From: Patescibacteria group bacterium
Lineage (GTDB): Bacteria > Patescibacteriota > Microgenomatia > UBA8517
Length of the DNA: 64,000 nucleotides
Assembly (NCBI GenBank): GCA_035291665.1
Contig: DATDRP010000001.1
Span: 146,952-210,951, forward strand
Direction of reading: 5' to 3'
Shown: one piece after another, positions 43,288-60,656 of the stretch
Position numbering within the stretch: position 1 is the stretch's first letter
Layout: each line of letters opens with the position of its first letter
Notes under the pieces: generated by a model
What the model saw: only the letters and a program-made list of their open reading frames with translations
Databases searched by the model: none
Told to the model about the DNA's origin: nothing
Translations under genes and position numbers: made by a program

Positions 43288-43938
43288 TTATCTCGAAAAG
43301 ATTATTTGATGCTTGAATCCTGTATTTTGTTTTTCCTGAACTCCAACACCCTTACTCAAAATGTAATAATTACGCTTTTCGTTGGATGCCTGATACAAAG
43401 GTTTAAATTTAGTGCTTCCGATTATTGACAAAAACGTATCCGGATCAAAATGGCTGATATACATTTGGATATTTTCAACAAAAGAAACAACTTGGTCTTT
43501 TGCTCCCATCGGATGGCTAAGAAGAAGTTTACCTCCGTCGTTAAGAGAATTATGAAATAAATCCAAGAGGTTTTTATGATATTCTCTTTGGATATTTTCT
43601 ATACTGTGAAGGCAAACTATTCCGTCGTATTTTTGGTTGTTTTTAAGAATTTCGAGGATGTTGCCTTCCAAAAATAAGGTTGACGGGTAAATTCTTCTGG
43701 CGATTTCCAGTTGGTTTTTCGAAATATCGACTCCTGTTACATTATGGTTTTTATTCAAAAAATATGAAATTACTGGCTGTCCTGTTCCACATCCTGCATC
43801 AAGAATATGGGAATTTCTGCCGAGAAGTTTTTCAAATTTACTAAGATATTCTATTTCTTCAGATAAATCACGATGGCCAAAATTTCTTTTTGCATATTCA
43901 TCCCAACCGATTCTTACCAAGTTTGCCTTATCATACAT
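43288..43938 (-). CDS. class I SAM-dependent methyltransferase
   Basis: ILDAGCGTGQPVISYF...VTGVDISKNQLEIARR. Confidence 0.8.
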   Translation of the reverse strand: MYDKANLVRIGWDEYAKRNFGHRDLSEEIEYLSKFEKLLGRNSHILDAGCGTGQPVISYFLNKNHNVTGVDISKNQLEIARRIYPSTLFLEGNILEILKNNQKYDGIVCLHSIENIQREYHKNLLDLFHNSLNDGGKLLLSHPMGAKDQVVSFVENIQMYISHFDPDTFLSIIGSTKFKPLYQASNEKRNYYILSKGVGVQEKQNTGFKHQIIFSR

Positions 43939-44014
43939 ATTATAGGTTATTATAAACCATTCGGATGTTTATTCAAAGTAAAAGAGTCATGACTCTGGAA
44001 TTAAAAGATCCAAC

Positions 44015-44159
44015 TTGACTTCGGGTAATATTCGGGATAGAGTGAAATAGATTGGAAGAGTGTAAGAGTAGAAGAGTGTAAGCAAAACTTAAGACAAATG
44101 TCAAAAGAAATCTCAACTTTTACTCTCCCCGCTCTTATACTCTTTTACTCTAATTTGCC
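44015..44159 (+). promoter_or_regulatory. R1: promoter/operator element built from AAGAGTNN 8-mer arrays
   Basis: TTGACT(44015-20)...ATTCGGGATAGAGTGAAATAG; direct 8-mers GAAGAGTGTAAGAGTAGAAGAGTGTAAG (44054-44083); spacer with ACTTAAG; inverted copies TTTTACTCTCCCCGCTCTTATACTCTTTTACTCTA (44119-44152) ending 8 nt before the ATG. Homologous to R2. Confidence 0.55.
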
Positions 44160-44420
44160 ATGCTTGATAAAATTTCTCTTCCCGTATCAGTCAGCCTTAT
44201 TTTTGACAGTACCAAGCGCAGTGTCTATCCGAAGTCTCTTGTCTGGAACGGACGAAAGTACCCAATTTTGAAGATTGGCCTGCATCATACATATCGAACC
44301 GGAAAGGTCCTTTTCCATGTGTTTAGTGTAGCCAGCGACACGCTTTTCTTCCGGTTGGTGCTTAACACAGAAACACTGCACTGGCGGCTTGAAGAAATTG
44401 CGGACAGCTTTACCGATTAA
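44160..44420 (+). CDS. hypothetical small protein (86 aa) under the R1 element
   Basis: MLDKISLPVSVSLIFDSTKRSVYPKSLVWNGRKYPILKIGLHHTYRTG...; preferred over the antisense ORF 44187..44426 because of upstream R1 homology to the dinB promoter. Confidence 0.4.
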   Translation: MLDKISLPVSVSLIFDSTKRSVYPKSLVWNGRKYPILKIGLHHTYRTGKVLFHVFSVASDTLFFRLVLNTETLHWRLEEIADSFTD

Positions 44421-44913
44421 ATGCATTTTAATACCCGACCTGCATTCTGATTAAAGCTACAATGGCGGCGAATAGGACTATCACTAAAACGAAATATATT
44501 TTGTTCATCTGAAATAATTTTACAACACAAATCAAGTGTTTATTTTAAAATAGCTATTTATCTATATCTTAGGAGTCTTATGGTTTGAATTAATTCGGAA
44601 TTTTACGCTGATTGAAGTTGCTAATTTTTAATTCATGCTGAATTCTTGCATTCGTACCCGGTTTATCTTTCTGATTCTGCGATAATAGACCTGATGGTTT
44701 TATTCTTATCGTGGATATTCTGAACGGTAATCGGGTTTTTTTCTGCGAAGCTGAAAATTCATATTTCATTTCTGGTGCCATAGTGAAATTACATCAATTG
44801 TTAAGATCGGTTTCAACTCTTGAAAAGTAAACAATATGTAGGTTAGGATGTAAAGTTGGCGGGAGGGTTATAACAGTTTCGAGAAAACCGCGTCTTTTAA
44901 GATAGGGAGGATA

Positions 44914-45705
44914 TCATAGCGTATAAGTATTAATTAGTTTTTTTTCAGTTTCTTTGGCTACAACAGCCTTAACTTCAACAAATTTTTCTATCCTTGATTT
45001 TTTAAGTTTGCTTTTTAAGAGTTCATCTATTTGAAATATTCCGGCAGAATTATTAAGCGTGATGAAAATCTGGATAATTTTTTTTGATCCTTTTTTTATT
45101 TCCACTTTATCAATAGCTGCAGCAGAAATAGCATAAATATCTTTCTCGCCTTTTTCATATGGTATTCGGGATCTGCCTTCGCTCATATCCAGGGCGTCTG
45201 CAACCCGGACTATTCCAGCTTCAATTGTATTGGGAATACCGTTTTTACGATGACTGATGATTGCATGTAAGACTTCTGACGAAATGATGACCCTTTCCCT
45301 TGTTGGTAAAAAGGTGAGAATTTCATGAAGCAAATTGTTTGACAGAAATAAACTATACTCCTCATGACCTTCGCGGTTTATGCTCATTCCAAGATCGTGC
45401 ATGATACTTGTCAAAAAAACGACCAGCTCCGCATGGTGATAAGACAATCCGAAATCTTTTACAATGCTCATTTCTACGTTTGCTTCAGATAGCATTCTGG
45501 ACAACCTTAAAGCAATATTGGAAACAATCTGGAAGTGAACAGGACCGTGATCGCTCATCCCCAACCTGTCAATCGCGTTGACATTAATAACGTCCCAAAG
45601 TGCATATATCTCATCATTTTGATTGATTTTCTCCAAACACATCTCAAGGAGTTTGTTTCCTTTTGTCGGAACATGTATTTTGACTGTACCTTTTTTATTT
45701 TTCAT
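44914..45705 (-). CDS. HD-domain metal-dependent phosphohydrolase
   Basis: His/Asp-containing HD motifs: DHGPVHFQIVSNIALRL ... IMHDLGMSI. Confidence 0.7.
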   Translation of the reverse strand: MKNKKGTVKIHVPTKGNKLLEMCLEKINQNDEIYALWDVINVNAIDRLGMSDHGPVHFQIVSNIALRLSRMLSEANVEMSIVKDFGLSYHHAELVVFLTSIMHDLGMSINREGHEEYSLFLSNNLLHEILTFLPTRERVIISSEVLHAIISHRKNGIPNTIEAGIVRVADALDMSEGRSRIPYEKGEKDIYAISAAAIDKVEIKKGSKKIIQIFITLNNSAGIFQIDELLKSKLKKSRIEKFVEVKAVVAKETEKKLINTYTL

Positions 45706-45864
45706 CTAAAGAATTTTCTTGGATTTTTCTGTTCGGATTTATGCCTTCCATAGAATACGTTTGAGGCGAATGGTATTTTAGCATTTTGGTAGTAATTGCG
45801 CCATAAAAAAGGAAATTTAGCTATAGCAGCGTTCAAGAGAACCCCGGACTTCCAGTCCGGGGGT

Positions 45865-45932
45865 GAATTGAACTCTGATATGTCATCCTCCTCTAAAGGA
45901 AACTCCGTCTTTTAAGGCGGAGAGGATGTCAT
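45865..45932 (+). repeat. structured REP-like repeat, copy 3
   Basis: GAATTGAACTCTGATATGTCATCCTCC-[CUCCGUC-uuuuaa-GGCGGAG hairpin]-GAGGATGTCAT. A degenerate fourth copy (3' half only: ...CCGCGTCTTTTAAGATAGGGAGGATATCAT) is at ~44866-44916. Confidence 0.7.
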
Positions 45933-45935
45933 TGA

Positions 45936-46056
45936 TATTCGGGTAATTTATGGGTAGAGTGAAAGAGTAAAAGAACAGGAGAGTATAAGAGTGTAAGTAT
46001 TTTTTAAACTTAAGCTTTTCTACTCTTACACTCTTCTACTCTTATATTTTAGGTTT
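45936..46056 (+). promoter_or_regulatory. R2: promoter/operator element homologous to R1, upstream of dinB
   Basis: ATTCGGGTAATTTATGGGTAGAGTGAAAGAGTAAAAG...AGAGTATAAGAGTGTAAG, spacer with ACTTAAG, inverted copies TTTTCTACTCTTACACTCTTCTACTCTTATATTTTAGG ending 8 nt before the ATG. Confidence 0.55.
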
Positions 46057-47349
46057 ATGTCTAGTAAATATATTCCGTCCGGACTTTCTTTTAACCCCGC
46101 AGCTCCTGCCATAATGCACATCGATCTTAATTCCTGCTTTGCGACAATTGAGCAGCAGGCAAACCCCTTCCTGCGCGGTAAACCTGTTGCAGTTGCCGCA
46201 TATACAACTCCGTCGGGCTGCATTGTTGCACCTTCGGTTGAAGCCAAGAGACTTGGTATAAAAGTCGGAATGCGCGTTAAGGACGGAAAAGCGATTTTTC
46301 CGAAACTGATTATCCTTCCGCCCGACCCCTGGAAGTACAGAGATGTGCATCTGAAATTAAGGCGTCTCTTGGAAGATTACTCCAGCGAGATTTTACCCAA
46401 ATCAATTGACGAGTTTGTGCTTGATCTTCGGGGAATGCCCGTTTTGAAAAGCGGCTCTTTCGAAAGTGCGGCAAAAGAGATAAAAAAAAGGATCAGGAAC
46501 GAAATAGGAGACTGGCTTATGGTTTCAATCGGCTTTGGCCCCAATAGGTTTTTGGCAAAGCTGGCCTCGTCATTACATAAGCCGGATGGATTGGATATCA
46601 TAAGAAGAGGCAACTTCAAGGATATCTATAAGAATCTGAGCCTCACCGATCTTTGCGGAATAAAGTTTAGAAATACCCTCAGGCTTAACAATTTCGGAGT
46701 GTTTGATGTTTGGGATTTTTATGAAAGCCCCTACTGGAAATTGAAGGCTACTTTTGCATCAATTGCCGGATATTATTGGTATTTGCGTCTCAGGGGGTGG
46801 GAAATTGATGATTTCCCCTACTCCAGGAAAAGCTATGGCAATTCATATGCACTTCCCAAACCTTTGAAAACCGTAGAAGAGCTTTCTCCGATACTTTCCA
46901 AATTAACGGAAAAGATGAGCTTCAGGCTCCGCCGTGCGGGTTATGTTGCCAGAGGAATCCACCTTGCACTGGGATTTCGCGACGGCAGATTCTGGCACAA
47001 GGGAAGCACTTTCTCCAAGGTTATTTTTGACTCGAGGGAGATTTACAAAAAAGCCGTTGGGCTTTTGACGATGTCTCCGCTTGACGGTCCCGTGCGTGAT
47101 ATTGCGGTTTCGGTATTCGATCTTAAGAAAAAAAACATTCTTCAGCTTGATCTTTTTGAAGACGTTGTTAAAAAAAGTGAATTGTCCGATGCGGTGGACC
47201 TTGTAAACGAACGTTGGGGAAATTTTGTCATTACACCAGCCAGAATGGCATTGGCCGAAAAGAACGCTGTTCCCGACCGGATCGCTTTCGGAGGTGTTAA
47301 GGAACTGGAGGAATTTACTATAGAGGACGTTGGTAAATTGGATGCCTAG
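46057..47349 (+). CDS. dinB: Y-family DNA polymerase IV
   Basis: IMHIDLNSCFATIEQQANPFLRGKPVAV (catalytic Asp region), palm/fingers/little-finger organisation. Confidence 0.9.
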   Translation: MSSKYIPSGLSFNPAAPAIMHIDLNSCFATIEQQANPFLRGKPVAVAAYTTPSGCIVAPSVEAKRLGIKVGMRVKDGKAIFPKLIILPPDPWKYRDVHLKLRRLLEDYSSEILPKSIDEFVLDLRGMPVLKSGSFESAAKEIKKRIRNEIGDWLMVSIGFGPNRFLAKLASSLHKPDGLDIIRRGNFKDIYKNLSLTDLCGIKFRNTLRLNNFGVFDVWDFYESPYWKLKATFASIAGYYWYLRLRGWEIDDFPYSRKSYGNSYALPKPLKTVEELSPILSKLTEKMSFRLRRAGYVARGIHLALGFRDGRFWHKGSTFSKVIFDSREIYKKAVGLLTMSPLDGPVRDIAVSVFDLKKKNILQLDLFEDVVKKSELSDAVDLVNERWGNFVITPARMALAEKNAVPDRIAFGGVKELEEFTIEDVGKLDA

Positions 47350-49360: not shown

Positions 49361-49445
49361 TGCCGAGAGAGGGAGTTGAACCCACACGTCTTATAAAGAC
49401 ACAGGATCCTAAATCCTGCGCGTCTGCCAATTCCGCCATCCCGGC
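49361..49445 (-). tRNA. tRNA-Leu (anticodon TAG), type II
   Basis: Reverse complement folds: acceptor GCCGGGA/TCTCGGC, anticodon stem-loop CAGGA-TTTAGGA-TCCTG, long variable arm, T-loop TTCAACT. Confidence 0.8.
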
Positions 49446-49611
49446 TTATACAACTTCACTATTATATCAATACTAAAGTTTTTCCCAAAAAAAAGAGGCG
49501 CACCTTGGGGTACACCTCATAAAAAAATCCTAACGCCCATCTAATCTATAGGATTAGTAAGCCTCAGAATCTAGAGATACTATAACATAAGACTATAAGT
49601 ATGTCAATATA

Positions 49612-50364
49612 TTACTTCTTGCTTGCTAATATGAATAATGAAGGACCAAATCTTGTTTTAGAAAACATCCTTTGTAGATATTTTTCAAGATACAATAAAA
49701 TCTCAACGGGAAGTAGTTTTTTAAGAATTACGCTTCGTATATTGGACACGGATTTGATGTCAATTATGCGGAAACCGTTATTTTCCAAATGATTAAGGAC
49801 ATCATCCGGATGATAATTAAAAAAATCTATACAACCTGTATTAATAGATTTTTTACTCCGAATGTCTTTTGGAAATATATCAAGTAAAAAAGTCAAATTC
49901 CCATGACGCAATTCATTAAGAGCAGATTTAAAATGAAGTTTATTGGGAAATTCGAGAATCAGATGTCCATTATTTTTTAAAAGCCTGTTGATGATCCTGA
50001 ACGCATTGTCGAGATTTTTGACGTGATGCAACACTCGGATAAATAGAACCAGATCAACACTTGATGGCTTTATTTTTGTTTCTAAATTTTCTATTTTTGA
50101 ATGGATAAATTTAATTTTTTTGTTTTTGTATTTTTCTTTTGCTATGGAGAGTAATTTTGAAGAAGGGTCCGTGAGGTAAATTCGTTTGGCTCGGTGGATG
50201 TATGTGGGAATCAAACGCCCATACCCCGCGCCGATATCGGCAATGGTTCCGATAATTTTTAGTCTTTTGAAAAAATTTTCAAGTACAAAAACTTCTGACT
50301 TGTGTTCGTAGATTCTGGACTCCCAATATGATGGATAATCGAAATTATCGTAATGAGCAGACAT
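49612..50364 (-). CDS. class I SAM-dependent methyltransferase
   Basis: IADIGAGYGRLIPTY...RIYLTDPS; DLVLFIRVLHHV. Confidence 0.8.
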   Translation of the reverse strand: MSAHYDNFDYPSYWESRIYEHKSEVFVLENFFKRLKIIGTIADIGAGYGRLIPTYIHRAKRIYLTDPSSKLLSIAKEKYKNKKIKFIHSKIENLETKIKPSSVDLVLFIRVLHHVKNLDNAFRIINRLLKNNGHLILEFPNKLHFKSALNELRHGNLTFLLDIFPKDIRSKKSINTGCIDFFNYHPDDVLNHLENNGFRIIDIKSVSNIRSVILKKLLPVEILLYLEKYLQRMFSKTRFGPSLFILASKK

Positions 50365-50449
50365 ATTATGTGTATTGTAAGGATATATGATTGATGCAAA
50401 TTATGTCAAAAGTAATCATAGATAAGAAATATATTTGTGGCTGGAATTG

Positions 50450-51076
50450 CTATTCCATTTCAGACATGAAGCTTGAGACGCCCTCCGCCCAGCTCCCATT
50501 TGACAGAGGCGTATATTTTGTCATTATTTCTTCGGGTGTTGTGTAGCCTTCGTCCAAGTAATCATCCCGAATCCCCTTTGTTACAGTATTTATTCCTTCT
50601 TCAAATGAGGAAAAGCCGAGTGTTCCTCGACTGTGGATTCCCCACCCCCAGCAGTTGAATGTTCCTTCCGGATAGGCTTTACAAAGATTTGATTCCTGCT
50701 GGGCAATGGCAGTAACCAGTCTGAAATCTACATCGTATTTATCTGCCGTATTTACAATATAAAAAGAATACGGTTCCAGAATTGAATCATATCTTTGAAG
50801 ATATGATTTAACTATCTCCCCTCTTGCATCCGATTCTACCGGATAGCCATTTATGGTTTGTGCTGATGGAGGAAGTGAAGAAAAAATACGAATATTTTGT
50901 GAATTATCACCCAGTACAGAAGGTTTTTTTTCACTCGAAATGTTTAAAAGGGCGTATAAAGATAAAGCAATAACTACTGGTGTTATGAGAAAAAACATTG
51001 AAGCTGTTATAAGACTATTGATATAAGATAATCCCCTGAGGTGCTTAAAATTAAATATAGGCATTTCAAATATCAT
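50450..51076 (-). CDS. membrane-anchored lytic transglycosylase-like peptidoglycan hydrolase
   Basis: N-terminal TM; LVTAIAQQESNLCKAYPEGTFNCWGWGIHS resembles the SLT-domain catalytic ES motif. Confidence 0.5.
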   Translation of the reverse strand: MIFEMPIFNFKHLRGLSYINSLITASMFFLITPVVIALSLYALLNISSEKKPSVLGDNSQNIRIFSSLPPSAQTINGYPVESDARGEIVKSYLQRYDSILEPYSFYIVNTADKYDVDFRLVTAIAQQESNLCKAYPEGTFNCWGWGIHSRGTLGFSSFEEGINTVTKGIRDDYLDEGYTTPEEIMTKYTPLSNGSWAEGVSSFMSEME

Positions 51077-51301
51077 ATCAAAAATAAATAATTATTAATA
51101 ACGATAATGAAGTGTTGGAGGTTTTCAATTGTTGATATACCGGAAGGAATCGGTGATTTGATGTAAAGAAAATCAGCTTATTACCGAAGCAATCTTCTTT
51201 ATTAAAATATTAAATTATATGTGAGCTTGGAAGGATTCGACCAAGTACAACTTGGGTTCATTCCTGAAATCGCTTCCTGAATTCAATTTTGATTTTTGAG
51301 G

Positions 51302-51373
51302 TGATCCCGGAAGGAATCGAACCTTCGACCATCTCCTTAAGAGGGAGTTGCTCTACCGCTGAGCTACGGGACC
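51302..51373 (-). tRNA. tRNA-Lys (anticodon CTT)
   Basis: Reverse complement: GGTCCCG-TA-GCTC...CTCTTAA anticodon loop...GAAGG-TTCGATT-CCTTC-CGGGATC-A. Confidence 0.75.
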
Positions 51374-51386
51374 ATACTCCTCAGTA

Positions 51387-52640
51387 TTATAATTTCCGAA
51401 ACATTAAAATGCCAATATGACCGGGATCGATCCTCGTAAAGAGCGGGTATCCGATTTCGGCATCGATATCATAGCCTTCTATCTTTACAATATACAGATT
51501 ATCCATTTCCCAAATCATCTGACCGGTATTTTTCAGAATCGAAAGTTGGTAAGTCTTATCGTCTTTTTGAATCAAGTCGGGAGTAAGCTCGGCCACCATA
51601 GTTGCAGAGTTAATTCTTTTGGGATTACCGGATTTTTTTAGCATTTTTTGAATTTCCGAGTAAAAATCATAAAAGCTTCCATCAGCCTTTTTGAATGAGA
51701 AAGTATTGAAAGGTTCACTCTGATAATTCAACATGAATGGGGTTACCGCCACTATATTTGGATCTTTTAACCATTTTTCAAATGCCTGTGTATAGTATTT
51801 TTTCAAAACATCAACAGACAAAAATTTATTTTCACCCCCCACATCGTGCGTCCAGCCTGTTTCGGTTATAAATATGGGTAAATTCTTTTTAACGCTCAAG
51901 GTTTTTATAAATTCAATTTCGTTAATATAACCCGTAATACTAACAATCCCCGTTTTATCGGGGCTTTCGGAAAAATTCGGATTTGGATATGAGTGTGAAG
52001 TCCACCCGTCGATATGGTCAAAAATATCAGGAACTTTATCGTGCATTGACTTAATAAAATTTGTTTCGCTCATATGCGTTTTGTTGTTGGGAGAAGATGC
52101 ATCTAATCCTGCTGGAAGAACAAAAAAATCATCATCTTTTCTTTTAAGTTGTATTGAAAATTCTTTTAAGAATTCAGCATAACCTTGAGGATCAATTACA
52201 CCTCCCCATTCAGCTGCATGATTCGGTTCATTACCAACCACAACATACCTATTTTGAGTGACCCAATTAAGAGAGTCCAGGAAATTTACCCAGCCATCAA
52301 TATCGTCAGTTGTCGGTTTCAACCAGCCTGAACCCTCTTGTTTCGTAGCTATTCTTATAATCGGAATAAGATGAAGTTCCCGCATCCGGTCAAAAACATT
52401 CTGCCACCTGTTTACATCCCTCTCATCTGATCTTAGTACCATAGTCACATACCCCCATTCGCCACCGGAAGAATTCACCAACTTTGCAGCATCGATTAGA
52501 TCGTTTTCATCCTGAATATGGATACCGAAAATGTTATTTTCCGTCGAATGCGGATTAGTTACAGCAAAAGTTGATTTATATGATTTAAAAAATATTAGAG
52601 CAGCTGCAATTAATATTATTAATTTGTAAAATTTTTTCAT
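51387..52640 (-). CDS. secreted glycoside hydrolase (GH5/GH53-like TIM barrel)
   Basis: Signal peptide MKKFYKLIILIAAALIFF; catalytic-like motifs VVGNEPN (acid/base) and ITETGW (nucleophile). The track's 110-codon N-extension to 52970 is antisense to the tRNA-Leu genes and was trimmed. Confidence 0.65.
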   Translation of the reverse strand: MKKFYKLIILIAAALIFFKSYKSTFAVTNPHSTENNIFGIHIQDENDLIDAAKLVNSSGGEWGYVTMVLRSDERDVNRWQNVFDRMRELHLIPIIRIATKQEGSGWLKPTTDDIDGWVNFLDSLNWVTQNRYVVVGNEPNHAAEWGGVIDPQGYAEFLKEFSIQLKRKDDDFFVLPAGLDASSPNNKTHMSETNFIKSMHDKVPDIFDHIDGWTSHSYPNPNFSESPDKTGIVSITGYINEIEFIKTLSVKKNLPIFITETGWTHDVGGENKFLSVDVLKKYYTQAFEKWLKDPNIVAVTPFMLNYQSEPFNTFSFKKADGSFYDFYSEIQKMLKKSGNPKRINSATMVAELTPDLIQKDDKTYQLSILKNTGQMIWEMDNLYIVKIEGYDIDAEIGYPLFTRIDPGHIGILMFRKL

Positions 52641-52745
52641 ATTAACCATTATACAAAATCCAAAAGATATAAGGGCGTTATGTAATAAATTCCAACTGTA
52701 TTTGGTATAATACAGGTGAAGTTTTGCCCTTGTGGCGGAATTGGC

Positions 52746-52830
52746 AGACGCGCAGCGTTCAGAACGCTGTCTCGATTTCCGAGGTAGGGGTTCAAATCCT
52801 CTCAAGGGCACTCGATAAACTCGTGCTCCT
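52746..52830 (+). tRNA. tRNA-Leu (anticodon CAG), type II
   Basis: GCCCTTG...CAGCG-TTCAGAA-CGCTG...long variable arm...TTCAAAT...CAAGGGC-A. Confidence 0.85.
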
Positions 52831-52903
52831 GTTCGGGTTTGATAGTGCGAATTAAGGTAGATATTATGCACACAAATCCTCTCAAGGGCACCGTTATTTA
52901 TAC

Positions 52904-52985
52904 GCGCGGGTGGCGAAATTGGTAGACGCGCAGTCTTGAGGAGGCTGTGGAGTAATCCTTGCAGGTTCAAGTCCTGTCCCGCGCA
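52904..52985 (+). tRNA. tRNA-Leu (anticodon GAG), type II
   Basis: GCGCGGG...CAGTC-TTGAGGA-GGCTG...TTCAAGT...CCCGCGC-A. Confidence 0.85.
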
Positions 52986-53155
52986 CTAATACAAAATGAC
53001 GAAAACTTTCGTTGTTTTGTTTTAACGGATAGGAATTGAACCGAAGGTCATGGGTGAGCGAAAGCGAATCCCTGGATACCCTTGTGGTATTCAAGTCCTG
53101 TCCCGCGCACTAAATCGGTCGCTTGGCTCAGTTGGTCAGAGCATCTCGTTTATAA

Positions 53156-53229
53156 GGATCTATAGCTCAGTTGGTCAGAGCGTTCGGTTTACATCCGAAA
53201 GGTCGTAGGTTCGAACCCTACTAGATCCA
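53156..53229 (+). tRNA. tRNA-Val (anticodon TAC)
   Basis: GGATCTA-TA-GCTC-AGTTGGTCA-GAGC-G-TTCGG-TTTACAT-CCGAA...GTAGG-TTCGAAC-CCTAC-TAGATCC-A. Confidence 0.85.
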
Positions 53230-53372
53230 CATTATTATAGAAAGTCGGGGGAAATGACACCGAGTCTGACTCGGACGAATCCCTCAGCGACTACAAATAT
53301 GATAGAATTTGAAAGAAAATAGCCGAGGTACCCAAGTTTGTTATAAATGTTAAGAATTGGAGGTGACATAAA

Positions 53373-53585
53373 ATGGCAATACCAGAAAACAAGAGCAAAA
53401 TATTAAAAGTTAAGTATATTAGTTTCAGTATACTGCCAGGTCAAGAAATTAAAAGTTTTGAAGAACTTTCAAAATCTGAGCCAGGTACAAGCGTAATAGT
53501 TGAAGGTGGCGGAGATTTGGACTACCTATCTTCAGATTTACAGAATGTTAAAAAAACAAGTGAGGATGATACATCTCAGGGTTAA
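53373..53585 (+). CDS. hypothetical small acidic protein (70 aa) inside a duplicated tRNA-Phe 5' segment
   Basis: Strong SD GGAGGTGA 7 nt upstream; MAIPENKSKILKVKYISFSILPGQEIKSFEELSKSEPGTSVIVEGGGDLDYLSSDLQNVKKTSEDDTSQG; flanked by a tRNA-Phe 5' fragment (53322-53338) and intact tRNA-Phe. Confidence 0.5.
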   Translation: MAIPENKSKILKVKYISFSILPGQEIKSFEELSKSEPGTSVIVEGGGDLDYLSSDLQNVKKTSEDDTSQG

Positions 53586-53594
53586 ATATTATAA

Positions 53595-53667
53595 GCCGAG
53601 GTAGCCAAGTTGGTCACGGCGGGCGCCTGAAGAGCGTCAGATTCGGGTTCGATTCCTGACCTCGGCA
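53595..53667 (+). tRNA. tRNA-Phe (anticodon GAA)
   Basis: GCCGAGG...GGCGC-CTGAAGA-GCGTC...TCGGG-TTCGATT-CCTGA-CCTCGGC-A. Confidence 0.8.
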
Positions 53668-53674
53668 CATTTAC

Positions 53675-53746
<72 letters not shown>

Positions 53747-53751
53747 CAAAA

Positions 53752-54819
53752 TTAATTTATTTTTGTCTCTTCACCTTCGCTAGGAGTTATCGGCAGCCTT
53801 TCTTTACCTACTGCATCACGCATTGTATTAAGCAGCAGCCTTTTCAGAATTTCACTAAATTTGACTCCATACATATCAAGAATTGTTGAAATAGCTACAG
53901 CTGCCTCTTTTGGTGCAAATGCGGGATTACAATTTGAATCGATAAAAAAATATCTCCCCGACTGATCCAACCTGACATCAAATTTTCCGTAATCGTACAT
54001 TTTATTAACATCAAATGCTTTTTTTACATACTCTTTTAATATCGGATCTTCATACTTTTGATAATAGAATGCATCGTAAGATTTACTCATCCATTGGTCC
54101 TCAAATGTAGAAAATATATATTTTTCGTTTTCTTTATTGAATATTTTTTCTGCAAGATAAACTTTTTTGTTAAGTCCTTCAAGAAGCATGCATGTGATTT
54201 CCCTTCCCACAATAAACTCCTCAACGATAACGGATTGTTTGTATGTTGATATCAAAAACTTCAGTCTTTCTCTTAAGTGCTTTTCATTTTCCGATACAGC
54301 ATCTTGTGTAATTTCTACTCCTCCGTGAATTTCATTAAGTTTTGATATCAAAGGAAAACGAAGTGTTGGATCTTTCAAATCATTTGAAGTATTAAACAAT
54401 TGGAAGTTTGGAATAGGGACTCCGTTTTGCTGAAGAAGTTTTTTTATTAAAAATTTATTTGACGTTAAAGAAAGTCCCAGTATATCCCCGCCGGTATAAG
54501 GAATATCAAGAATTTCCAAAACTCCAGGAATTGATGAAGCAAGACTTTCAATTCCTTTAACTGAATCTACAAGATTGATTACCATATTAGGTTTATCTTT
54601 GCGAAGATGAGAGGAAAGATCCGAATTGCCGGGATATAATTTGACTTCAATAAAAAGTTTCTTTAAGTAGTCTGCAACCATTCTTGCATCATCTTCCGCA
54701 TCTTTTTCAGTAATATACTGTTCTTCCGTCGGGAAATATTCTCTTTTTACATCACTAAAAACTATCCCTACCTTTTTAGGTAATTCATAAGTTGAGGACA
54801 ACCCATTTTCTTGAACCAT
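53752..54819 (-). CDS. ATP-grasp enzyme, D-Ala--D-Ala ligase family-like
   Basis: 355 aa; N-domain VGIVFSD...; central ATP-grasp region EEFIVGREITCMLLEG; C-terminal FIDSNCNPAF resembles the Ddl (E/D)xN metal-binding loop. Confidence 0.6.
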   Translation of the reverse strand: MVQENGLSSTYELPKKVGIVFSDVKREYFPTEEQYITEKDAEDDARMVADYLKKLFIEVKLYPGNSDLSSHLRKDKPNMVINLVDSVKGIESLASSIPGVLEILDIPYTGGDILGLSLTSNKFLIKKLLQQNGVPIPNFQLFNTSNDLKDPTLRFPLISKLNEIHGGVEITQDAVSENEKHLRERLKFLISTYKQSVIVEEFIVGREITCMLLEGLNKKVYLAEKIFNKENEKYIFSTFEDQWMSKSYDAFYYQKYEDPILKEYVKKAFDVNKMYDYGKFDVRLDQSGRYFFIDSNCNPAFAPKEAAVAISTILDMYGVKFSEILKRLLLNTMRDAVGKERLPITPSEGEETKIN

Positions 54820-54942
54820 TATAATTTCTTAAACATTACTAAATTATTAGATTATTTGGTAAAATACAATAGCTAGATTATAAAACAAGAAGTGTATTTT
54901 AAGTTAGTAAACAAAAAATACAATAGTTAAATCTTTTCAATT

Positions 54943-55018
54943 GGCCCAGTAGCTCAATGGACAGAGCAGTTCCCTTCTAAGGAAAAGGTTGGTGGTTCAA
55001 CTCCACCCTGGGTCACCA
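54943..55018 (+). tRNA. tRNA-Arg (anticodon TCT), CCA encoded
   Basis: GGCCCAG-TA-GCTC-AATGGAC-AGAGC...GTTCC-CTTCTAA-GGAAA...GGTGG-TTCAACT-CCACC-CTGGGTC-A-CCA. Confidence 0.8.
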
Positions 55019-55125
55019 AGACTGATCGGTTCTTCAGAGGAAAATCAAAAAACATGTTCAACGTATCTAAGCCATTTTCAATTATATTTTGAAGACTAAT
55101 TTTTAAGGATTTGGATAATGTTATT

Positions 55126-56094
55126 TTAAAATAACCCCTCTTTCAGCTCGTTAATTGACAAAACAACTTCGAATGTTGTCATATCACCGACATTAACAAA
55201 AAGAGAAAGCGAATCTTTATTGTCTCTTTTTATTATTCCCCCACAGGAATAAACTACCCGCCGGTTAGAATGTAATTCACTGACCAGTGGCTTACCGTTT
55301 TCTTTGATAAAATTGTCAGGAGTAATAATAGGTTCTTCGGCTACTTTTACTTTAAATTTATTACCTTTACGGGTTAATTTTGCACGACCGATACTATATA
55401 CAAATTTTCTAATGCCGTGAATTTTTTGAATAGTAATACCATGAATAATAAATAAAGCCTCGTTTTCATTAATCCAAATTGGCGGCATAGTTGTACCTAT
55501 CCTCCATTTAGCCCAATATAAATTTTTCGGAAATACTATATCATCAAGTTTTCGCGGAAGCTGATGATGCAATGAAAATGCGAGAATCTTATGGTGATAT
55601 TTGAGACCTTCCGGACGGAAAAAATAAGTAACATCATCGATCGGCGTCGTATTTTTACCGGGTCCGAAAGTGTTGATAATTAAATAAGGAGGCAGTTCTT
55701 CATTCCATGAACTATGAGAGTCGATTTTAATGATTGCAGGGAAGGGAATCGGGCGTCCCTTTTTATCCCGTAATAATGCAGTGACCCCAATAAGAAGATT
55801 TTCATTTGGAAGCTCAATTACTCTGGGGTCTTCCAAATTTACTCCATCGTACACCGGTTTCCATATGAGGCGTTTATGAACTATATTTCCTGAAATATCC
55901 AATTCAAATAATTTTAATACTCCTGTATCGGGTTCTCCCCTGCTGCCCGGTCTTTTTACTTCTCTGCCTATGAAATAAACCGAATCATTATGAAGGTTTT
56001 GCCAGGCTGCCATATTATATCGGGAAACCCTGCTGCCCGGAAATAAATTTTTTATATTTTTAATTTTCATGGTGTTCTTCGACGATTTTATCAA
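55126..56094 (-). CDS. hypothetical protein, possible beta-propeller glycosidase/phosphorylase (GH130/DUF377-like)
   Basis: 322 aa; no firm motif; assignment rests mainly on the overlapping upstream GT4-GH fusion gene. Confidence 0.3.
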   Translation of the reverse strand: MIKSSKNTMKIKNIKNLFPGSRVSRYNMAAWQNLHNDSVYFIGREVKRPGSRGEPDTGVLKLFELDISGNIVHKRLIWKPVYDGVNLEDPRVIELPNENLLIGVTALLRDKKGRPIPFPAIIKIDSHSSWNEELPPYLIINTFGPGKNTTPIDDVTYFFRPEGLKYHHKILAFSLHHQLPRKLDDIVFPKNLYWAKWRIGTTMPPIWINENEALFIIHGITIQKIHGIRKFVYSIGRAKLTRKGNKFKVKVAEEPIITPDNFIKENGKPLVSELHSNRRVVYSCGGIIKRDNKDSLSLFVNVGDMTTFEVVLSINELKEGLF

Positions 56095-58267
56095 TATTGT
56101 TATATAAATTTAATTTGGATATTGCTATACGGGATAATAAATAAGAAACAAGAGATTCCGCTCCTTGATTTAAATTAATTCGGTCAGGATGCAGTCCGTC
56201 ATAACAACCGCCATTCTGATCATTATAAAGCGGGATTTGTAAACTATTATTTCCCAAAAACCAGCTAAAAGATATTCCAATTAGATTAAGATAATTTTCA
56301 TCGTTAGTTATTTTATGAGCAGTCGATAGAGCCATTATCATAGAAGCAGGATCTTCCGGCTGCTGATCAAAATTACTTCTTTTCCGGTTATTTTTATACC
56401 AAAATGAATGACCAATAGGAATATATCTATTTGATGAAAATGTTTTATTTATGAGAAATGTTAGTGAAGCCTTACCTTTTTCAGTATAGATTTTTGAATG
56501 TGTAATATTTCCGGCGATAAGCAAAGATTCAGGTATGATTGCATTATTGTATCCCAAATAATCAGCAAACCAATTCCAGGATTTTATTGAATTTTTTTTG
56601 TATTCCTTAATCAGTAAATCGGCATGCTCTATGATTAAAGCCAGAAGTTCATCCCGATACTCGGAATAAGCAGTTGAAACCATAGCTAAAGATTTAATAA
56701 TAAAAGCAGAAGAGCGTATATGTTTTAGTTTTCGGGTGACCGGAAGTGCTTTTAAAAATATATCTTTAGCGATATTCCGTAATAATTTTGTATTTTTTTT
56801 GTTACTCATAACTTCACTTACTGCCCATATTGCTCGTGCCGACGAATCTTCCAAATCCTCCGAACTGTTTTGAGTCGTGGCTTCTTTGTGTAAATAATCT
56901 AAATAATTTATAAAACTACCATCATCCTGCTGACACCTTTTAATGAATAAAAGATATTTCAATATTTGCGATTCAGAATACTTATAAGAATCAGATGTCA
57001 TCCAACTGCAGATAACCAACGCCCGCGCATTATCGTCCAAAGTGTACCCGAATTCTTTACTTGGTTTATCCAGTTTGGCAAATTGAAAAAGACCAAAATC
57101 ATCAGTCATATTATTTAAGTGTGTAAAGTTTATTGTTGGCAAAATATTTTGTTTTAGAAGCTCCGAATATTTTTGCGCAACATTGCTCCATAGCATCGGT
57201 CGTGTTTGTTTATAGGCATTCAAATGTTTTTTTTCAAGTTCGGATTTATCACTAAGAAGACCCTTTAATGCTCTCGCATATGCATTGGAATCTTTAATAG
57301 GCACAAGGATTCCGGAATCTTTATTTATAATTTCCTTTGCCTGGGCAAATTCAGTACTTACAACCGCTCTCCCTGTTCCCAATGCATAAGATAAAGTTCC
57401 GCTTACAGCCTGGTTGATATTAATTGAAGTGGATATATAAATATCTGTAGCTTTCAAAAATGTAAATAAATCAGATAGCGATAAATATTGATCATAAAAC
57501 CTAACGTGATTTTCTAATTTCAATTCAGTAACAAGTTCAATCAACCCGTTTCTGTAACTTTCACCTTCATCTCTTTTGACTATCGGATGGGTTTGTCCCA
57601 AAATAAGATAAAGTAATTTAGGTTGGGTTTTTATAAGTTCTGGAAGAGCTTTTATAACATATTCAATACCTTTTCCTCTACTCAGTAACCCAAATGTTGA
57701 CAGGATGCTCAAGTCTTCATTTAATTTTAGTTTTTGTTTTGCCTTTTTGGTAGTCGAAAAAGCAGTGAAGTGGATACCGTGAGGAATGACATAAACTTTC
57801 CCTTTTGATTTTGGGTATAGTATTTCTAATATACTTTTCGAACTTTCTGTTAATACAACAATTATGTTAGCCCTATTAATTATCCTTTCTGTTACATCTT
57901 TCATATGGGTAGATGGTGAAGGAAGTACAGTATGGAGTGTAACCAGTAACGGTTTTTTATAAGAATCGATAAATGAAAGAATGTATTTACCATCAATTCC
58001 GCCATAGATTCCGTATTCATGCTGAATCATTACCCCGCTTATTTCGGAGTCAGAATTAAAGCGTAATGCTAGTTTTTTATATTCTTTTTTGTTGTTCTGA
58101 TTAATAATCCATTCCACCTCCGAAGGATAATTGAATAAATCGAGAGGTGAAAAGTTCATCGCCGCAACTTTACATTGAATCTCATTACCCAGAAGCTTTT
58201 GACTTGAGTTTAATAAATCCTGGTTGAATGTTGCTATTCCGCATTCACGGGGAGGATATGTTCCCAT
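56060..58267 (-). CDS. glycosyltransferase family 4 fused to a C-terminal (alpha/alpha)6-barrel glycoside-hydrolase-like domain
   Basis: N-terminal GT4 MGTYPPRECGIATF... with RGKGIEYVIKAL...; C-terminal ~350 aa helical-repeat domain (DDNARALVICSWM...) like amylo-alpha-1,6-glucosidase/GDE_C. Confidence 0.6.
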   Translation of the reverse strand: MGTYPPRECGIATFNQDLLNSSQKLLGNEIQCKVAAMNFSPLDLFNYPSEVEWIINQNNKKEYKKLALRFNSDSEISGVMIQHEYGIYGGIDGKYILSFIDSYKKPLLVTLHTVLPSPSTHMKDVTERIINRANIIVVLTESSKSILEILYPKSKGKVYVIPHGIHFTAFSTTKKAKQKLKLNEDLSILSTFGLLSRGKGIEYVIKALPELIKTQPKLLYLILGQTHPIVKRDEGESYRNGLIELVTELKLENHVRFYDQYLSLSDLFTFLKATDIYISTSININQAVSGTLSYALGTGRAVVSTEFAQAKEIINKDSGILVPIKDSNAYARALKGLLSDKSELEKKHLNAYKQTRPMLWSNVAQKYSELLKQNILPTINFTHLNNMTDDFGLFQFAKLDKPSKEFGYTLDDNARALVICSWMTSDSYKYSESQILKYLLFIKRCQQDDGSFINYLDYLHKEATTQNSSEDLEDSSARAIWAVSEVMSNKKNTKLLRNIAKDIFLKALPVTRKLKHIRSSAFIIKSLAMVSTAYSEYRDELLALIIEHADLLIKEYKKNSIKSWNWFADYLGYNNAIIPESLLIAGNITHSKIYTEKGKASLTFLINKTFSSNRYIPIGHSFWYKNNRKRSNFDQQPEDPASMIMALSTAHKITNDENYLNLIGISFSWFLGNNSLQIPLYNDQNGGCYDGLHPDRINLNQGAESLVSYLLSRIAISKLNLYNNIDKIVEEHHEN

Positions 58268-58437
58268 GAAGACAACAGTAGGTTTTATTGTCAGCGTACT
58301 TATCCATTATACGCTTTTGGATCAAATTAGACTGAAATTAGTGTTTCAAAACCGATGTAATTAATAGAATAATTTACCTGCTGTAACATTATTCTTAAAT
58401 GTTTTTTGGAAATAACGATAGTTACAAATTAGTCAGA

Positions 58438-59580
58438 TCATATAAACCTGATCTTCATTCCGTCTTCAACTTTTGTTTTCAGTGAAACTTCCTGTCCGGG
58501 AAACTTTGACCCGGTTCCCCAAATTTTCGCTTTTATTATATTTTCGGAAAATTCTTCACCAATTTTCTCCAAAATTTTTCCAAGATCATAGCCATTTTTA
58601 ACCACCATTGGTTGATCATCTCCCGGCTCATCATCATGTTTAATCAAGTATATTCGAATAAGACCAAGTGTCTTCAATACCTCATCTTTTAATTCTTCAA
58701 TTCCGATTCCCATTTGAGCACTAACTTTAAAAATCTTCTGCAAATGAATCGATTCATTAGAAGTATCAGTTTGATCAATTGAATCATTGTTTTTTCGAGA
58801 CTCATCCAATAAATCAACTTTGTTCAAAAGATATATTGCCGGAATATAGACACGGTTTCTCGATGTTGCGTCAATTAATTGCTCAAGGTCAACCTTTTCA
58901 TTTATAGTAATTTCAGCATTTTTTATTCCCATTTCAGAAACAACTTCTTTTATCGTTTCCTTTCCGATTTCTTGATGATGATTTGAGTGAATTGTAATTC
59001 CGCCTTTGAGTTTTTTATCGATTAGTATTTGTGGTTTTTTCTTATTAATTCTGATCCCGTGTTTTTCCAAAGAATCCGTTATTTTTTCTAATGCATTCGG
59101 GAATTCGTTATCGGTCATAATTATCAAAAGATCAGCCCCCCGTACAACAGACAAAACTTCCCTGCCACGGCCTTTTCCGATTTCAGCTCCTTCAATAAGC
59201 CCCGGAACATCCAATATTTGAATTCTAGCGTCTTTATATACCATCATTCCGGGAATAACAGTAACGGTCGTAAAGGCATATGGTGCAACTTTACTTCTCG
59301 CATTAGTAAGCTGATTTATCAAAGTTGATTTTCCAACTGAAGGAGGACCAACCAAAACTACTGTAGCATCCCCTTGGTGTTTAACTGAATAACCTCCTCC
59401 GCCTCCGCCTTTTGATTTGATAACGCTCTCAAATTGTTTATCTTTGAGCCTCGAAAGTCTTGCCCGGAGCATCCCGATATGATGTTCAGTCCCTTTGTGA
59501 TAGGGAGTTTCCCTGATTTCTTTTTGAATTGACTCAATTTGTTCTTGAATTGTTGACATTTCAGTGAAATTATACCTCAT
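58438..59580 (-). CDS. DRG-family (developmentally regulated GTP-binding protein-like) GTPase with C-terminal TGS domain
   Basis: N-terminal helix IQKEIRETPYHKGTEHHIGMLRARLSRLK, G1 LVGPPSVGKSTL, G2 FTT, G3 DVPGLIEGA, DRG hallmark GKGRGREV, NKVD (G4), C-terminal TGS. Confidence 0.8.
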   Translation of the reverse strand: MRYNFTEMSTIQEQIESIQKEIRETPYHKGTEHHIGMLRARLSRLKDKQFESVIKSKGGGGGGYSVKHQGDATVVLVGPPSVGKSTLINQLTNARSKVAPYAFTTVTVIPGMMVYKDARIQILDVPGLIEGAEIGKGRGREVLSVVRGADLLIIMTDNEFPNALEKITDSLEKHGIRINKKKPQILIDKKLKGGITIHSNHHQEIGKETIKEVVSEMGIKNAEITINEKVDLEQLIDATSRNRVYIPAIYLLNKVDLLDESRKNNDSIDQTDTSNESIHLQKIFKVSAQMGIGIEELKDEVLKTLGLIRIYLIKHDDEPGDDQPMVVKNGYDLGKILEKIGEEFSENIIKAKIWGTGSKFPGQEVSLKTKVEDGMKIRFI

Positions 59581-59682
59581 ATTGAGTATAATTAGCGGAT
59601 AAGGAAAGTATTTATCTGATTTTAAGGATATTTAGCCACTGTGATGAAATGGATATCACATCGGTCAGATAATCAAAATATA

Positions 59683-59712
59683 TGTGCTCGTAGCTCAATG
59701 GATAAGCAGAGC
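59683..59712 (+). pseudogene. tRNA 5' fragment (resembles the 5' half of the downstream tRNA-Arg)
   Basis: GTGCTCGTAGCTCAATGGATAAGCAGAGC parallels GCCCGTGTAGCTTAACGGATAAAGCAGCGG of tRNA-Arg(TCG), but no T-arm follows. Confidence 0.35.
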
Positions 59713-59772
59713 TTGGCCAAACTACGTTTGGTAGATCATCTGTCTTAGACATTGATGATGACAAGAAAATTA

Positions 59773-59844
59773 GCCCGTGTAGCTTAACGGATAAAGCAGC
59801 GGTCTTCGGAACCGCTGATGAGGGTTCAATTCCCCCCACGGGCA
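59773..59844 (+). tRNA. tRNA-Arg (anticodon TCG)
   Basis: GCCCGTG-TA-GCTT-AACGGATA-AAGC-A-GCGGT-CTTCGGA-ACCGC...TTCAATT...CACGGGC-A. Confidence 0.8.
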
Positions 59845-59897
59845 CATGAATTATTTGGAAAGCAATTGTAGAGTATAGTTAAAAAATTGAATATTAG

Positions 59898-59982
59898 GCC
59901 GAGGTGGCGGAATGGCAGACGCGCAGGACTTAAAATCCTGTTTCTGAAATCAGAAGTGAGGGTTCGAGTCCCTCCCCCGGCA
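59898..59982 (+). tRNA. tRNA-Leu (anticodon TAA), type II
   Basis: GCCGAGG...CAGGA-CTTAAAA-TCCTG...long variable arm...GAGGG-TTCGAGT-CCCTC-CCCCGGC-A. Confidence 0.8.
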
Positions 59983-60011
59983 CACCTGCATAGCAGGTTT
60001 CAGTCTGGCTA

Positions 60012-60272
60012 ATGTACATTGTTTACTTGTTACAAAGCAAAACTAATCCAGAAAAGAGTTACGTCGGTCGAACTATTAAGCCTATTCTTGTAAGATTAGA
60101 TGAACATAATAAAGGTTTAACAAAATCAACCAAACCTTATATTCCATGGAGATTGGTTTATTATGAACAGTTTTATTGTAAACTCTGTTCAGATAAACGA
60201 GAGATTTATTTGAAATCAGGTAGGGGGTTTAGACTAAGAAAATTAATATTGATCAACCAAAATATGTTGTAG
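60012..60272 (+). CDS. GIY-YIG nuclease family protein (UPF0213-like)
   Basis: MYIVYLLQSKTNPEKSYVGRTIKPILVRLDEHNKG...PWRLVYYEQF; begins 30 nt after tRNA-Leu(TAA). Confidence 0.7.
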   Translation: MYIVYLLQSKTNPEKSYVGRTIKPILVRLDEHNKGLTKSTKPYIPWRLVYYEQFYCKLCSDKREIYLKSGRGFRLRKLILINQNML

Positions 60273-60292
60273 TTGAATTCTGCTTTGCAGAA

Positions 60293-60365
60293 CGGAGTGT
60301 GGCTCAGCTGGTAGAGCGCCGCGTTTGGGACGCGGAGGTCCCCGGTTCGAATCCGGGCACTCCGA
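60293..60365 (+). tRNA. tRNA-Pro (anticodon TGG)
   Basis: CGGAGTG-TG-GCTC-AGCTGGTA-GAGC-G-CCGCG-TTTGGGA-CGCGG...CCCGG-TTCGAAT-CCGGG-CACTCCG-A. Confidence 0.85.
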
Positions 60366-60505
60366 CAAGTGAAAATCGATAGTGTCCGGGTTCGATGGTG
60401 CAACTTAAGGAAAAATTATGCACGGCGAATCCCTGTCTGCCGACAGGCAGGCGGGCACTCCGACTGATAGATTTTGTTTTGATATAATATATTTTGACAA
60501 TTTAA

Positions 60506-60576
60506 GCGGGTGTAGTTGATCGGCTCAACACCTCCCTTCCAAGGAGGAAAGACGGGTTCAACTCCCGTCACCCGCT
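60506..60576 (+). tRNA. tRNA-Gly (anticodon TCC)
   Basis: GCGGGTG-TA-GTTG-ATCGGCT-CAAC-A-CCTCC-CTTCCAA-GGAGG...ACGGG-TTCAACT-CCCGT-CACCCGC-T. Confidence 0.85.
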
Positions 60577-60656
60577 CAAAAATCTGAGATTAAATAGAAG
60601 AACAACGTATTATTTTGTTTTAAGTCTTAAGTTTTCTGAAGGTTGCGAAATGAAGA

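Follow-up and report, generated by a model that had tools for sequence, protein, structure and literature searches.

Two homologous elements, R1 and R2, stand in front of a gene for an 86-aa protein and a gene for a Y-family DNA polymerase, respectively, in a 64,000-nucleotide (nt) stretch of a Woesebacteria-like Patescibacteria metagenome-assembled genome (MAG) (contig DATDRP010000001.1, positions 146,952 to 210,951 of the forward strand; this whole stretch is called the window). Each element joins a promoter-like sequence to tandem arrays of the octamer AAGAGTNN, followed by a loop and arrays of the complementary octamer NNACTCTT. The first-pass annotation of this DNA took the octamers for a site bound cooperatively by a dimeric or oligomeric regulator, possibly the SOS operator of the lineage, or for a large hairpin in the 5′-untranslated region (5′-UTR), and the locus raises the question of which part of these elements is the regulatory site and what the octamers do. 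The best explanation, to which we would assign a probability of roughly 0.6, is that an old, conserved promoter with a direct repeat has been combined with a young octamer palindrome acting as a 5′-terminal stem-loop of the mRNAs. If so, the promoter that carries the TTCGGG direct repeat and serves a translesion-polymerase gene pair of this uncultivated Patescibacterium is a conserved cis-regulatory site, and it is told apart here from a conspicuous, fast-evolving repeat that would mislead motif-based regulon searches.

The upstream regions of the orthologous small gene were compared at about 20 distinct Woesebacteria loci (related loci, contigs, or genomes are labelled with L-numbers). All of them had the sequence cTTGAC-TTCGGGT-(A/T)4-TT(C/T)GG(G) in common, in which a −35 box runs straight into two direct repeats spaced at an 11-bp period; the layout cTTGAC...TAnnnT was likewise kept. 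The core TTGACTTCGGGT..TTCGG was retained while the flanks diverged, and in L008 the 11-bp repeat is perfect (ACTTCGGGTAA ATTTCGGGTAA). The copy in R1 is the only exact TTCGGG-N5-TTCGGG in the window, the one in the spacer of the R2 promoter being degenerate (TTCGGGT-AATT-TATGGG, 45938–45954; 2 mismatches). Within about 380 kb of DNA from relatives, the TTCGGG repeat in the TTGAC context was found solely at these two genes. In the closest relatives, L129, L131, and L149, each of the two genes has its own copy of the promoter, the second one, immediately ahead of the polymerase gene, being an intact TTGACTTCGGGTAWTATTCGG promoter, and octamer arrays are absent. The pair of homologous promoters is therefore an older trait of this subclade.

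The TTCGGG repeat has the properties of a tandem direct-repeat operator, namely a spacing of ~11 bp, a conserved core, an A/T spacer, an overlap with the −35 box and the promoter spacer, and conservation among orthologues. We regard TTCGGGT-N4-TTCGGG, and not the octamers, as the conserved candidate operator and as the likely site of a tandem-binding regulator of the small-protein and polymerase genes. It had been missed by the first-pass annotation, in which only “ATTCGGG” was reported. Its architecture resembles tandem winged-helix sites, and 11-bp tandem sites are also the build of Pho-box-type operators. Direct repeats are bound by certain LexA proteins as well: one study gives TTACACATATTTTWTACATA for Balneolaeota and cites Patescibacteria among the groups with a LexA of this kind (PMC7739468). 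Like both types of site, TTCGGGT-N4-TTCGGG is a tandem sequence with one-helical-turn spacing and overlaps the −35 box and spacer of translesion-polymerase promoters, while its sequence differs from the direct-repeat operator motifs compared. Candidates for its regulator are a winged-helix activator and a LexA that recognises direct repeats.

In the orthologues that have no hairpin, the −10 box (TAnnnT) is situated only 6–12 nt before the start codon, a distance suggesting that the mRNAs are leaderless or nearly so. Shine-Dalgarno-like motifs are not enriched upstream of the window's open reading frames (ORFs) (6/53 vs. 8.7% background), and TAnnnT hexamers accumulate 4–6 nt ahead of the first start codons, which is a weak positional −10 signal, the start codons being uncertain. 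These two observations suggest that leaderless or Shine-Dalgarno-independent initiation is widespread in the window. At another locus, L130 (215–451), the TTCGGG promoter lies ~200 nt upstream of the small gene, from which a different, non-repetitive insert separates it; the stretch from promoter to start codon seems to be an insertion hotspot.

In R1 and R2, the DNA between the sigma-70-like promoter and the start codon is occupied by a hairpin of roughly 100 nt. The AGAGT/ACTCT pentamer reaches a density of 7 per 150 nt at 44008–44157 and 45925–46074 and at most 2 elsewhere in the window, and chains of units at exact 8-nt spacing are confined to the two elements. Tandem Repeats Finder (TRF) detected period-8 arrays at 44056–44082, 44132–44151, 45956–45992, and 46022–46044, so that all four arms consist of 2.5–4.6 copies of imperfect units (68–91% matches). 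Arms within and between R1 and R2 are complementary over up to 20 nt at 100% or 34 nt at 85%, and the leader RNAs fold with −36.9 kcal/mol (R1, z = −4.6 vs. shuffles) and −33.5 kcal/mol (R2, z = −3.8 vs. shuffles). The description of R1 and R2 as homologous promoter-plus-leader elements, each with an inverted repeat of iterated 8-mers, was thus borne out (mean column identity in the R1–R2 alignment: 73%), though it needed correction in some details. Each element begins with a promoter-like site, TTGACT-17-TAGAGT (44015–44043) in R1 and TTGATA-17-TAGAGT (45932–45960) in R2. Homology had been said to extend over the whole length, but only the promoter halves are co-linear, and the hairpin module of R1 fits the reverse complement of the R2 module better (72 vs. 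56), for which reason the module appears to be a separable palindrome that tolerates either orientation. The repeats do lie just upstream of the start codons but do not both end 8 nt before them: the distance is 7 nt for the R1 hairpin, while in R2 the last ACTCT unit stops 14 nt before the ATG and weak pairing reaches further.

Most promoters of the orthologous small gene have no octamer arrays. Hairpins upstream of this gene are limited to four lineages scattered in the tree of the small protein, that is, the window (R1 and R2), L071, L150, and L132–135, the last of which have an altered unit (AAGGTRAA, pairing with TYACCTT). A covariance model of five hairpins, the last columns of which include an ATG, found no hairpins beyond its training set in about 294 kb of related Woesebacteria DNA. 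The consensus fold of the five contains 31 pairs, of which 7 are changed on both sides; the replacement of AGAGT/ACTCT by AAGGT/ACCTT in L132 is a compensating change in both arms. In 5/5 hairpins the sense RNA exceeds the antisense RNA in stability, by 2.5–9 kcal/mol, and G-U pairing could accommodate the transition mismatches of the two arms more often in the sense than in the antisense strand (31 vs. 14, p = 0.008, related sequences being counted as independent). These data favour a structure at the RNA level over a DNA operator. Of the two options put forward for the octamers, the large 5′-UTR hairpin is the better one.

In the DNA model, the AAGAGTNN octamers would be operator iterons bound cooperatively by an oligomeric regulator that jointly represses the small gene and dinB, as MetJ binds 8-bp met boxes and the omega repressor 7-bp heptads. 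Such a model would account for regular 8-bp units, both direct and inverted, just downstream of the −10 box, for the recurrence of one unit in several Woesebacteria genomes, and for the tolerance of either orientation. It is nevertheless very unlikely, because most orthologous promoters have no arrays and yet keep the TTCGGG repeat, and the mismatches favour G-U pairing in the sense strand. Moreover, the arms of L071, L064, and L150 keep different flavours (AAGAGC/GAGAGC vs. ACTCTT) instead of converging on one consensus, the spacing of the arms ranges from 9 to about 50 nt, arrays occur at pheT, rplT, and htpX, and every hairpin in other phyla has its own unit.

The arrays at these other genes were found in two genomes. 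In L064 (Woesebacteria), a hairpin fills the 81-nt gap between lemA and htpX and is ~75% identical to the L071 hairpin (64/87 aligned positions). Because lemA and htpX abut or overlap (TTAGAGTAAT-ATG) in three relatives, L152, L154, and L155, one of which is the genome carrying the L150 hairpin, the L064 hairpin is an insertion, and a conserved hairpin upstream of htpX was rejected. At its left end the L064 hairpin matches sequence that was already there (TTAGAGTAAT), and a direct (target-site) duplication could not be defined. Over 2,933 bp that include the hairpin, six independent assemblies of the L064 strain do not differ; repeat-number polymorphism, or switching of the simple-sequence-repeat type, was therefore not supported in this one strain. 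The order of a PolX-like polymerase gene (HHH_8/DNA_pol_B_thumb/PHP), lemA, and htpX is conserved in L152, L154, L155, and L157 (Woesebacteria), and a gene for a Trans_reg_C (OmpR-type) regulator lies nearby in L152.

The second genome, the MAG CAZAUT01 (L055 and L110), is labelled “uncultured Gammaproteobacteria”, but its contigs share ~69% nucleotide identity with window genes at 20.7–25.6 kb; on this ground they are Woesebacteria-like and the bin is mislabelled or chimeric. It carries ACTCTTTT x4 five nt before the start of pheT, while the pheS–pheT spacer of the window has no array. A solo purine-rich arm follows rplT, solo arms being present in L055, and in L110 a full hairpin precedes a 349-aa gene of unknown kind; the 5′ arm of this hairpin is identical to that of R1 over 28/28 nt. 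The octamer hairpins are a dispersed, fast-changing repeat class that is not tied to damage genes.

A genome-wide motif search had been proposed as a means of defining the regulon. Scanning of genome contigs for AAGAGTNN x3 gave at least 119 loci, mostly in unrelated phyla, so the search did not define a regulon of this MAG and revealed a wider class instead. Among the matches listed, hairpins of the same build were found with the covariance model in Spirosoma, Cytophagales, Chthonomonadales, Chloroflexota, Caldilineaceae, and others. Each has its own 7–8-mer unit, several often occur per 8 kb, and their folding energies range from −50 to −86 kcal/mol; examples from the set L010–L128 are L099 (1928–2016, 4236–4343, and 6742–6847), L080, L104, L072, and L082. 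Sixteen of 37 such hairpins fall between −12 and +10 nt from the ATG of an ORF of 150 aa or more, compared with 8% of random positions, a figure to be read with the ATG in the last columns of the model in mind.

Considering these results, the AAGAGTNN arrays are not the SOS operator suggested by the first-pass annotation: they are absent from most orthologous promoters, stand at housekeeping sites in relatives, and hairpins of their build are found in many phyla. The occurrence of the motif at intergenic positions without gene association, which had been named as evidence against the operator, was indeed observed in related genomes. The arrays are rather a new member of a known, labile class of tandem-repeat hairpins. 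They fit the short-tandem-repeat (LSSR/STRR) class, which is defined by three or more tandem copies of an intergenic unit of 5–11 nt, and, as in STRR hairpins, a complementary array nearby permits a stem-loop. The STRRs form intergenic hairpins in filamentous cyanobacteria, for example, between hupS and hupL and upstream of hoxW; what they do is unsettled, and the suggestions made include roles in transcript stability, translational coupling, and pausing (PMC2670836). The likeness extends to the pairing of short tandem units with complementary ones and to the dispersal of the hairpins. Unlike the 7-nt units of cyanobacteria, the Patescibacterium has 8-nt units, both arms are clearly arrays, the copies per genome segment are few, and they are placed between the −10 box and the start codon. 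A phenomenon long known in cyanobacteria and still unexplained is thereby extended to genomes of the Candidate Phyla Radiation (CPR) and to several other phyla.

In Beggiatoaceae, Cyanobacteria, and Bacteroidetes, heptamer direct repeats such as TAACTGA stand immediately ahead of start codons (PMC4679880), and in Nostoc heptamer repeats lie near the recF and recO promoters (bioRxiv 10.1101/2022.06.06.494920). They share with the hairpins described here the position within a few nt of start codons in genomes with little Shine-Dalgarno use and the lack of a common function of the downstream genes, which include ribosomal-protein and DNA-repair genes. In contrast to those repeats, which are almost all direct and have no inverted partner, an inverted partner and a hairpin are the rule here. 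A bolder generalization, which we consider unlikely, would be that hairpins with two arms of tandem 7–8-mers abutting start codons form a widespread, unrecognised class of 5′-end or translation-initiation elements in bacteria poor in Shine-Dalgarno sequences (Patescibacteria, Bacteroidota, Chloroflexota). A conserved factor could read such elements as signals for processing or ribosome loading, and a Woesebacteria factor reading AAGAGTNN would explain the 28-nt identity between unrelated loci. Repeat-built hairpins set against start codons in several Shine-Dalgarno-poor phyla are the broader pattern most worth following.

The dispersal of the hairpins fits another explanation too, according to which the palindromes are selfish or neutral repeats, REPIN- or MITE-like or produced by slippage or template switching, that land in permissive spots and affect genes only incidentally. 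Elements of this type, such as the Correia elements of Neisseria, are dispersed hairpin formers of ~100 nt. The hairpins described here are likewise ~100 nt long, extragenic, found in either orientation and in leaders, and have −10-like ends; inverted termini (TAGAGT...ACTCTA) are present, and copies occur at 5 or more different loci across related genomes, with only 2 in the window. The patchy presence among orthologues, the insertion between lemA and htpX where relatives have no spacer, the solo arms in L055, the flipped module of R1, and the near-identical arms at non-orthologous loci of genomes only ~69% identical in coding DNA are all as expected for selfish repeats, and purine-rich seeds such as TAGAGATAAGAA and TAGGTAAAAGG are already present in hairpin-less leaders. 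On the other hand, their arms are internally periodic, no target-site duplication could be defined, no high copy number was seen, no transposase or RAYT gene was seen nearby, and the only 2 copies in 64 kb are both at one functional gene pair. The sense-strand G-U bias and the placement at start codons in many phyla further suggest a constraint at the level of RNA or translation. We consider purely selfish or neutral repeats rather unlikely.

The reading that we prefer, a young stem-loop added to an old promoter, can be put as follows. The older layer would be the sigma-70-type promoter, the −35 box and spacer of which hold two 11-bp direct repeats, and P1 and P2 would be controlled through this TTCGGG repeat by a tandem-binding regulator. 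The younger, lineage-specific layer would be a palindrome of 80–110 nt (AAGAGTNN xN, loop, NNACTCTT xN), one of the dispersed, unstable tandem-repeat hairpins that are gained and lost in intergenic DNA just upstream of start codons, and was presumably added to both genes between the −10 box and the ATG. With start sites placed according to the promoter consensus, transcripts of P1 and P2 would begin within a few nt of the hairpin base; in R1, R2, L071, L150, and L110 the hairpin starts within about 0–8 nt of the predicted transcription start. A leaderless mRNA would in this manner become an mRNA with a strong 5′-terminal stem-loop that ends 4–14 nt before a start codon having no Shine-Dalgarno sequence, and the locus would document how leaderless genes are turned into genes with structured leaders. 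The stem-loop may alter mRNA stability, either by shielding from 5′-end-dependent decay or through RNase III cleavage, and it may alter translation initiation of both genes, in whichever direction, relative to the ancestral leaderless mRNA. CPR bacteria are reported to have kept both RNase III and RNase J (PMC12641178). In the 5′-UTR of hmw1A of Haemophilus influenzae, a transcribed heptamer array forms a long hairpin, and its cleavage by RNase III sets expression at a post-transcriptional level (PMC12721329). R1 and R2 correspond to it in having a tandem repeat between promoter and start codon and a 5′-UTR hairpin, the transcription of which is deduced here from the promoter position. They differ from hmw, where the left arm alone is repetitive, the repeat is perfect, and its number varies (phase variation), in that the units are imperfect and both arms are arrays; nor did the copy number vary in the one strain checked, that of the related genome L064.

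Several points weigh against this reading. The use of P1 and P2 and their start sites are deduced from the promoter consensus, and every hairpin-bearing leader keeps a TAnnnT hexamer 6–8 nt before the start codon, so that a second promoter inside the element could produce a leaderless mRNA free of the hairpin. A simple stem does not need an 8-nt periodicity. A model based on structure only does not explain the 28-nt identity of R1 and L110 or the reuse of AAGAGT as a unit by at least 5 Woesebacteria genomes, which hint that the sequence itself is recognised or mobile. The strand-bias statistic treats related sequences as independent, the repeat number did not change in the six assemblies of one strain, and no regulator of the direct repeat was found; tblastn of the 64-kb window detected neither LexA nor RecA.

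The first of these points can be extended to a separate explanation, in which the TAnnnT at the 3′ end of the palindrome is the working leaderless promoter (TACTCT, 44146–44151, the last unit of the R1 3′ arm, 8 nt before the ATG; TATATT, 46043–46048, in R2, also 8 nt before the ATG) and the palindrome is an untranscribed spacer that modulates the −35 box and operator upstream of it or uncouples them, perhaps in the form of an extruded cruciform. The hexamer stands 6–8 nt before the start in R1, R2, L071, L150, and L132, which is the −10 distance of the hairpin-less orthologues, and the genome appears to use short or absent leaders. However, no −35-like hexamer is present 16–18 nt upstream, TACTCTA is the reverse complement of the 5′-terminal TAGAGTA and may be a by-product of the palindrome, and TTGACT-17-TAGAGT upstream is a better match to the consensus. 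A promoter at this position is highly improbable.

Other roles of the hairpins were rejected. An intrinsic terminator or attenuator does not fit, as the hairpins are not followed by a consistent U-tract and the promoter regions that contain R1 and R2 are divergent. A known RNA family was excluded because R1 and R2 had no Rfam match at gathering or E-value thresholds: with Rfam 15, only tRNAs reach the gathering score in the whole window, and 43900–46200 gave only sub-threshold matches to generic hairpins (miRNA precursors). On the minus strand, the R1 loop region contains a promoter-like TTGACA-18-TACACT (44075–44104, 10/12 matches) facing a divergent methyltransferase gene, which has a TTGAAT-16-TATAAT site of its own at 43949–43976.

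The small gene and the polymerase gene are adjacent in most relatives, with gaps of 18–148 nt in L001, L004, L008, and L150 and 284 nt in L151. The 86-aa ORF exactly matches an NCBI protein from a “Patescibacteria group bacterium” MAG; its homologues are nearly all 86 aa long and mostly come from Woesebacteria. It matched no Pfam or NCBIfam family, neither its sequence nor its fold revealed a relative in the PDB, and AlphaFold predicts eight strands with a pLDDT of 92.5. Distant homologues (30–36% identity) are encoded in Nitrospirota directly downstream of lexA, in the order lexA, small protein, radical-SAM/HHH protein, and IMS polymerase. The cassette on one Nitrospirota contig (L147, 9225–13413), with an 82-aa homologue that is 36% identical to the window protein, ties the family to SOS-type loci outside Patescibacteria. 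This homologue scores 19.7 bits against DUF6504 (PF20114; cut-off 24.2) and 2/44 of its relatives have a precomputed PF20114 match, while the window protein has none; the small protein is at most a distant relative of DUF6504, for which no mention was found in the literature. The earlier proposal that the 86-aa protein could be an accessory factor of the polymerase gained support from gene context, which points to a polymerase-associated damage-response protein. If this partnership is real, the link to lexA in Nitrospirota makes the small all-beta protein a candidate for a new SOS component. The polymerase matches the DNA polymerase IV equivalogs of NCBIfam, yet below their cut-offs, and is thus a divergent Pol IV-like enzyme of the Y family.

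As had been stated before, no LexA box is present: GAAC-N4-GTTC, the Gram-positive type and the only one searched, gave 16 matches in the window when up to 1 mismatch was allowed, where 21.9 were expected, and 43900–46200 contained none. As tblastn detected no lexA or recA gene in the window either, a canonical LexA box near the operon or a nearby lexA or recA was rejected. The features of the locus are collected in Table 1.

Table 1. Features of the gene pair and its two upstream elements (window coordinates)
Feature	Position	Strand	Basis or remark
Promoter P1 (predicted): −35 TTGACT (44015–44020), 17-nt spacer, −10 TAGAGT (44038–44043)	44015–44043	+	Consensus scan, 9/12
Direct repeat TTCGGGT-AATA-TTCGGGA, candidate operator/activator site	44020–44037	+	11-bp period, fills the P1 spacer
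R1 hairpin, 5′ arm: GG AAGAGTGT AAGAGTAG AAGAGTGT AAG, tandem octamers	44054–44082	+	TRF period 8, 3.4 copies; paired in minimum-energy fold
R1 loop with CTTAAG and minus-strand promoter-like site	44083–44116	+	
R1 hairpin, 3′ arm: CTTTTACTCTCCCCGCTCTTATACTCTTTTACTCTA	44117–44152	+	Repeat finder, fold, TRF; ends 7 nt before ATG 44160
Gene for conserved all-beta 86-aa protein	44160–44420	+	304 homologues, synteny with IMS polymerase, AlphaFold
1.5-kb segment splitting the usual two-gene operon	44421–45931		Genes 18–148 nt apart in L001, L004, L008, L150
HD-domain gene inside the 1.5-kb segment	44914–45705	−	
Promoter P2 (predicted): −35 TTGATA, 17-nt spacer, −10 TAGAGT (45955–45960)	45932–45960	+	Consensus scan
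R2 hairpin, 5′ arm: TAGAGTGA AAGAGTAA AAGAACAG GAGAGTAT AAGAGTGT AAGT	45955–45998	+	TRF period 8, 4.6 copies; fold
R2 hairpin, 3′ arm: ACTTAAGCTTTTCTACTCTTACACTCTTCTACTCTTATATTTTA	46008–46051	+	Repeat finder, fold, TRF; ATG at 46057
Y-family DNA polymerase, DinB/Pol IV-like, 430 aa	46057–47349	+	Pfam IMS (PF00817) 2e-34, IMS_C (PF11799) 2.8e-16

The HD-domain gene between the two genes of the pair is flanked by a 36-nt direct repeat with 78% identity (44882–44917 and 45897–45932), the second copy of which abuts the −35 box of R2; it may mark the insertion of the 1.5-kb segment or a duplication of the promoter. A longer duplication linking the flank of the HD-domain gene to R2 was rejected, the alignment being marginal (z about 2.8). 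Just upstream of R2, a GC-rich hairpin at 45842–45862 resembles a terminator on the minus strand, and 45823–45940 gave a sub-threshold, probably spurious match to Rfam HgcC (27.6 bits vs. a gathering score of 50). Elsewhere, the window contains 15 tRNA genes, 13 of them within about 12.5 kb (49361–61839) and two more at 30.5–31.0 kb.

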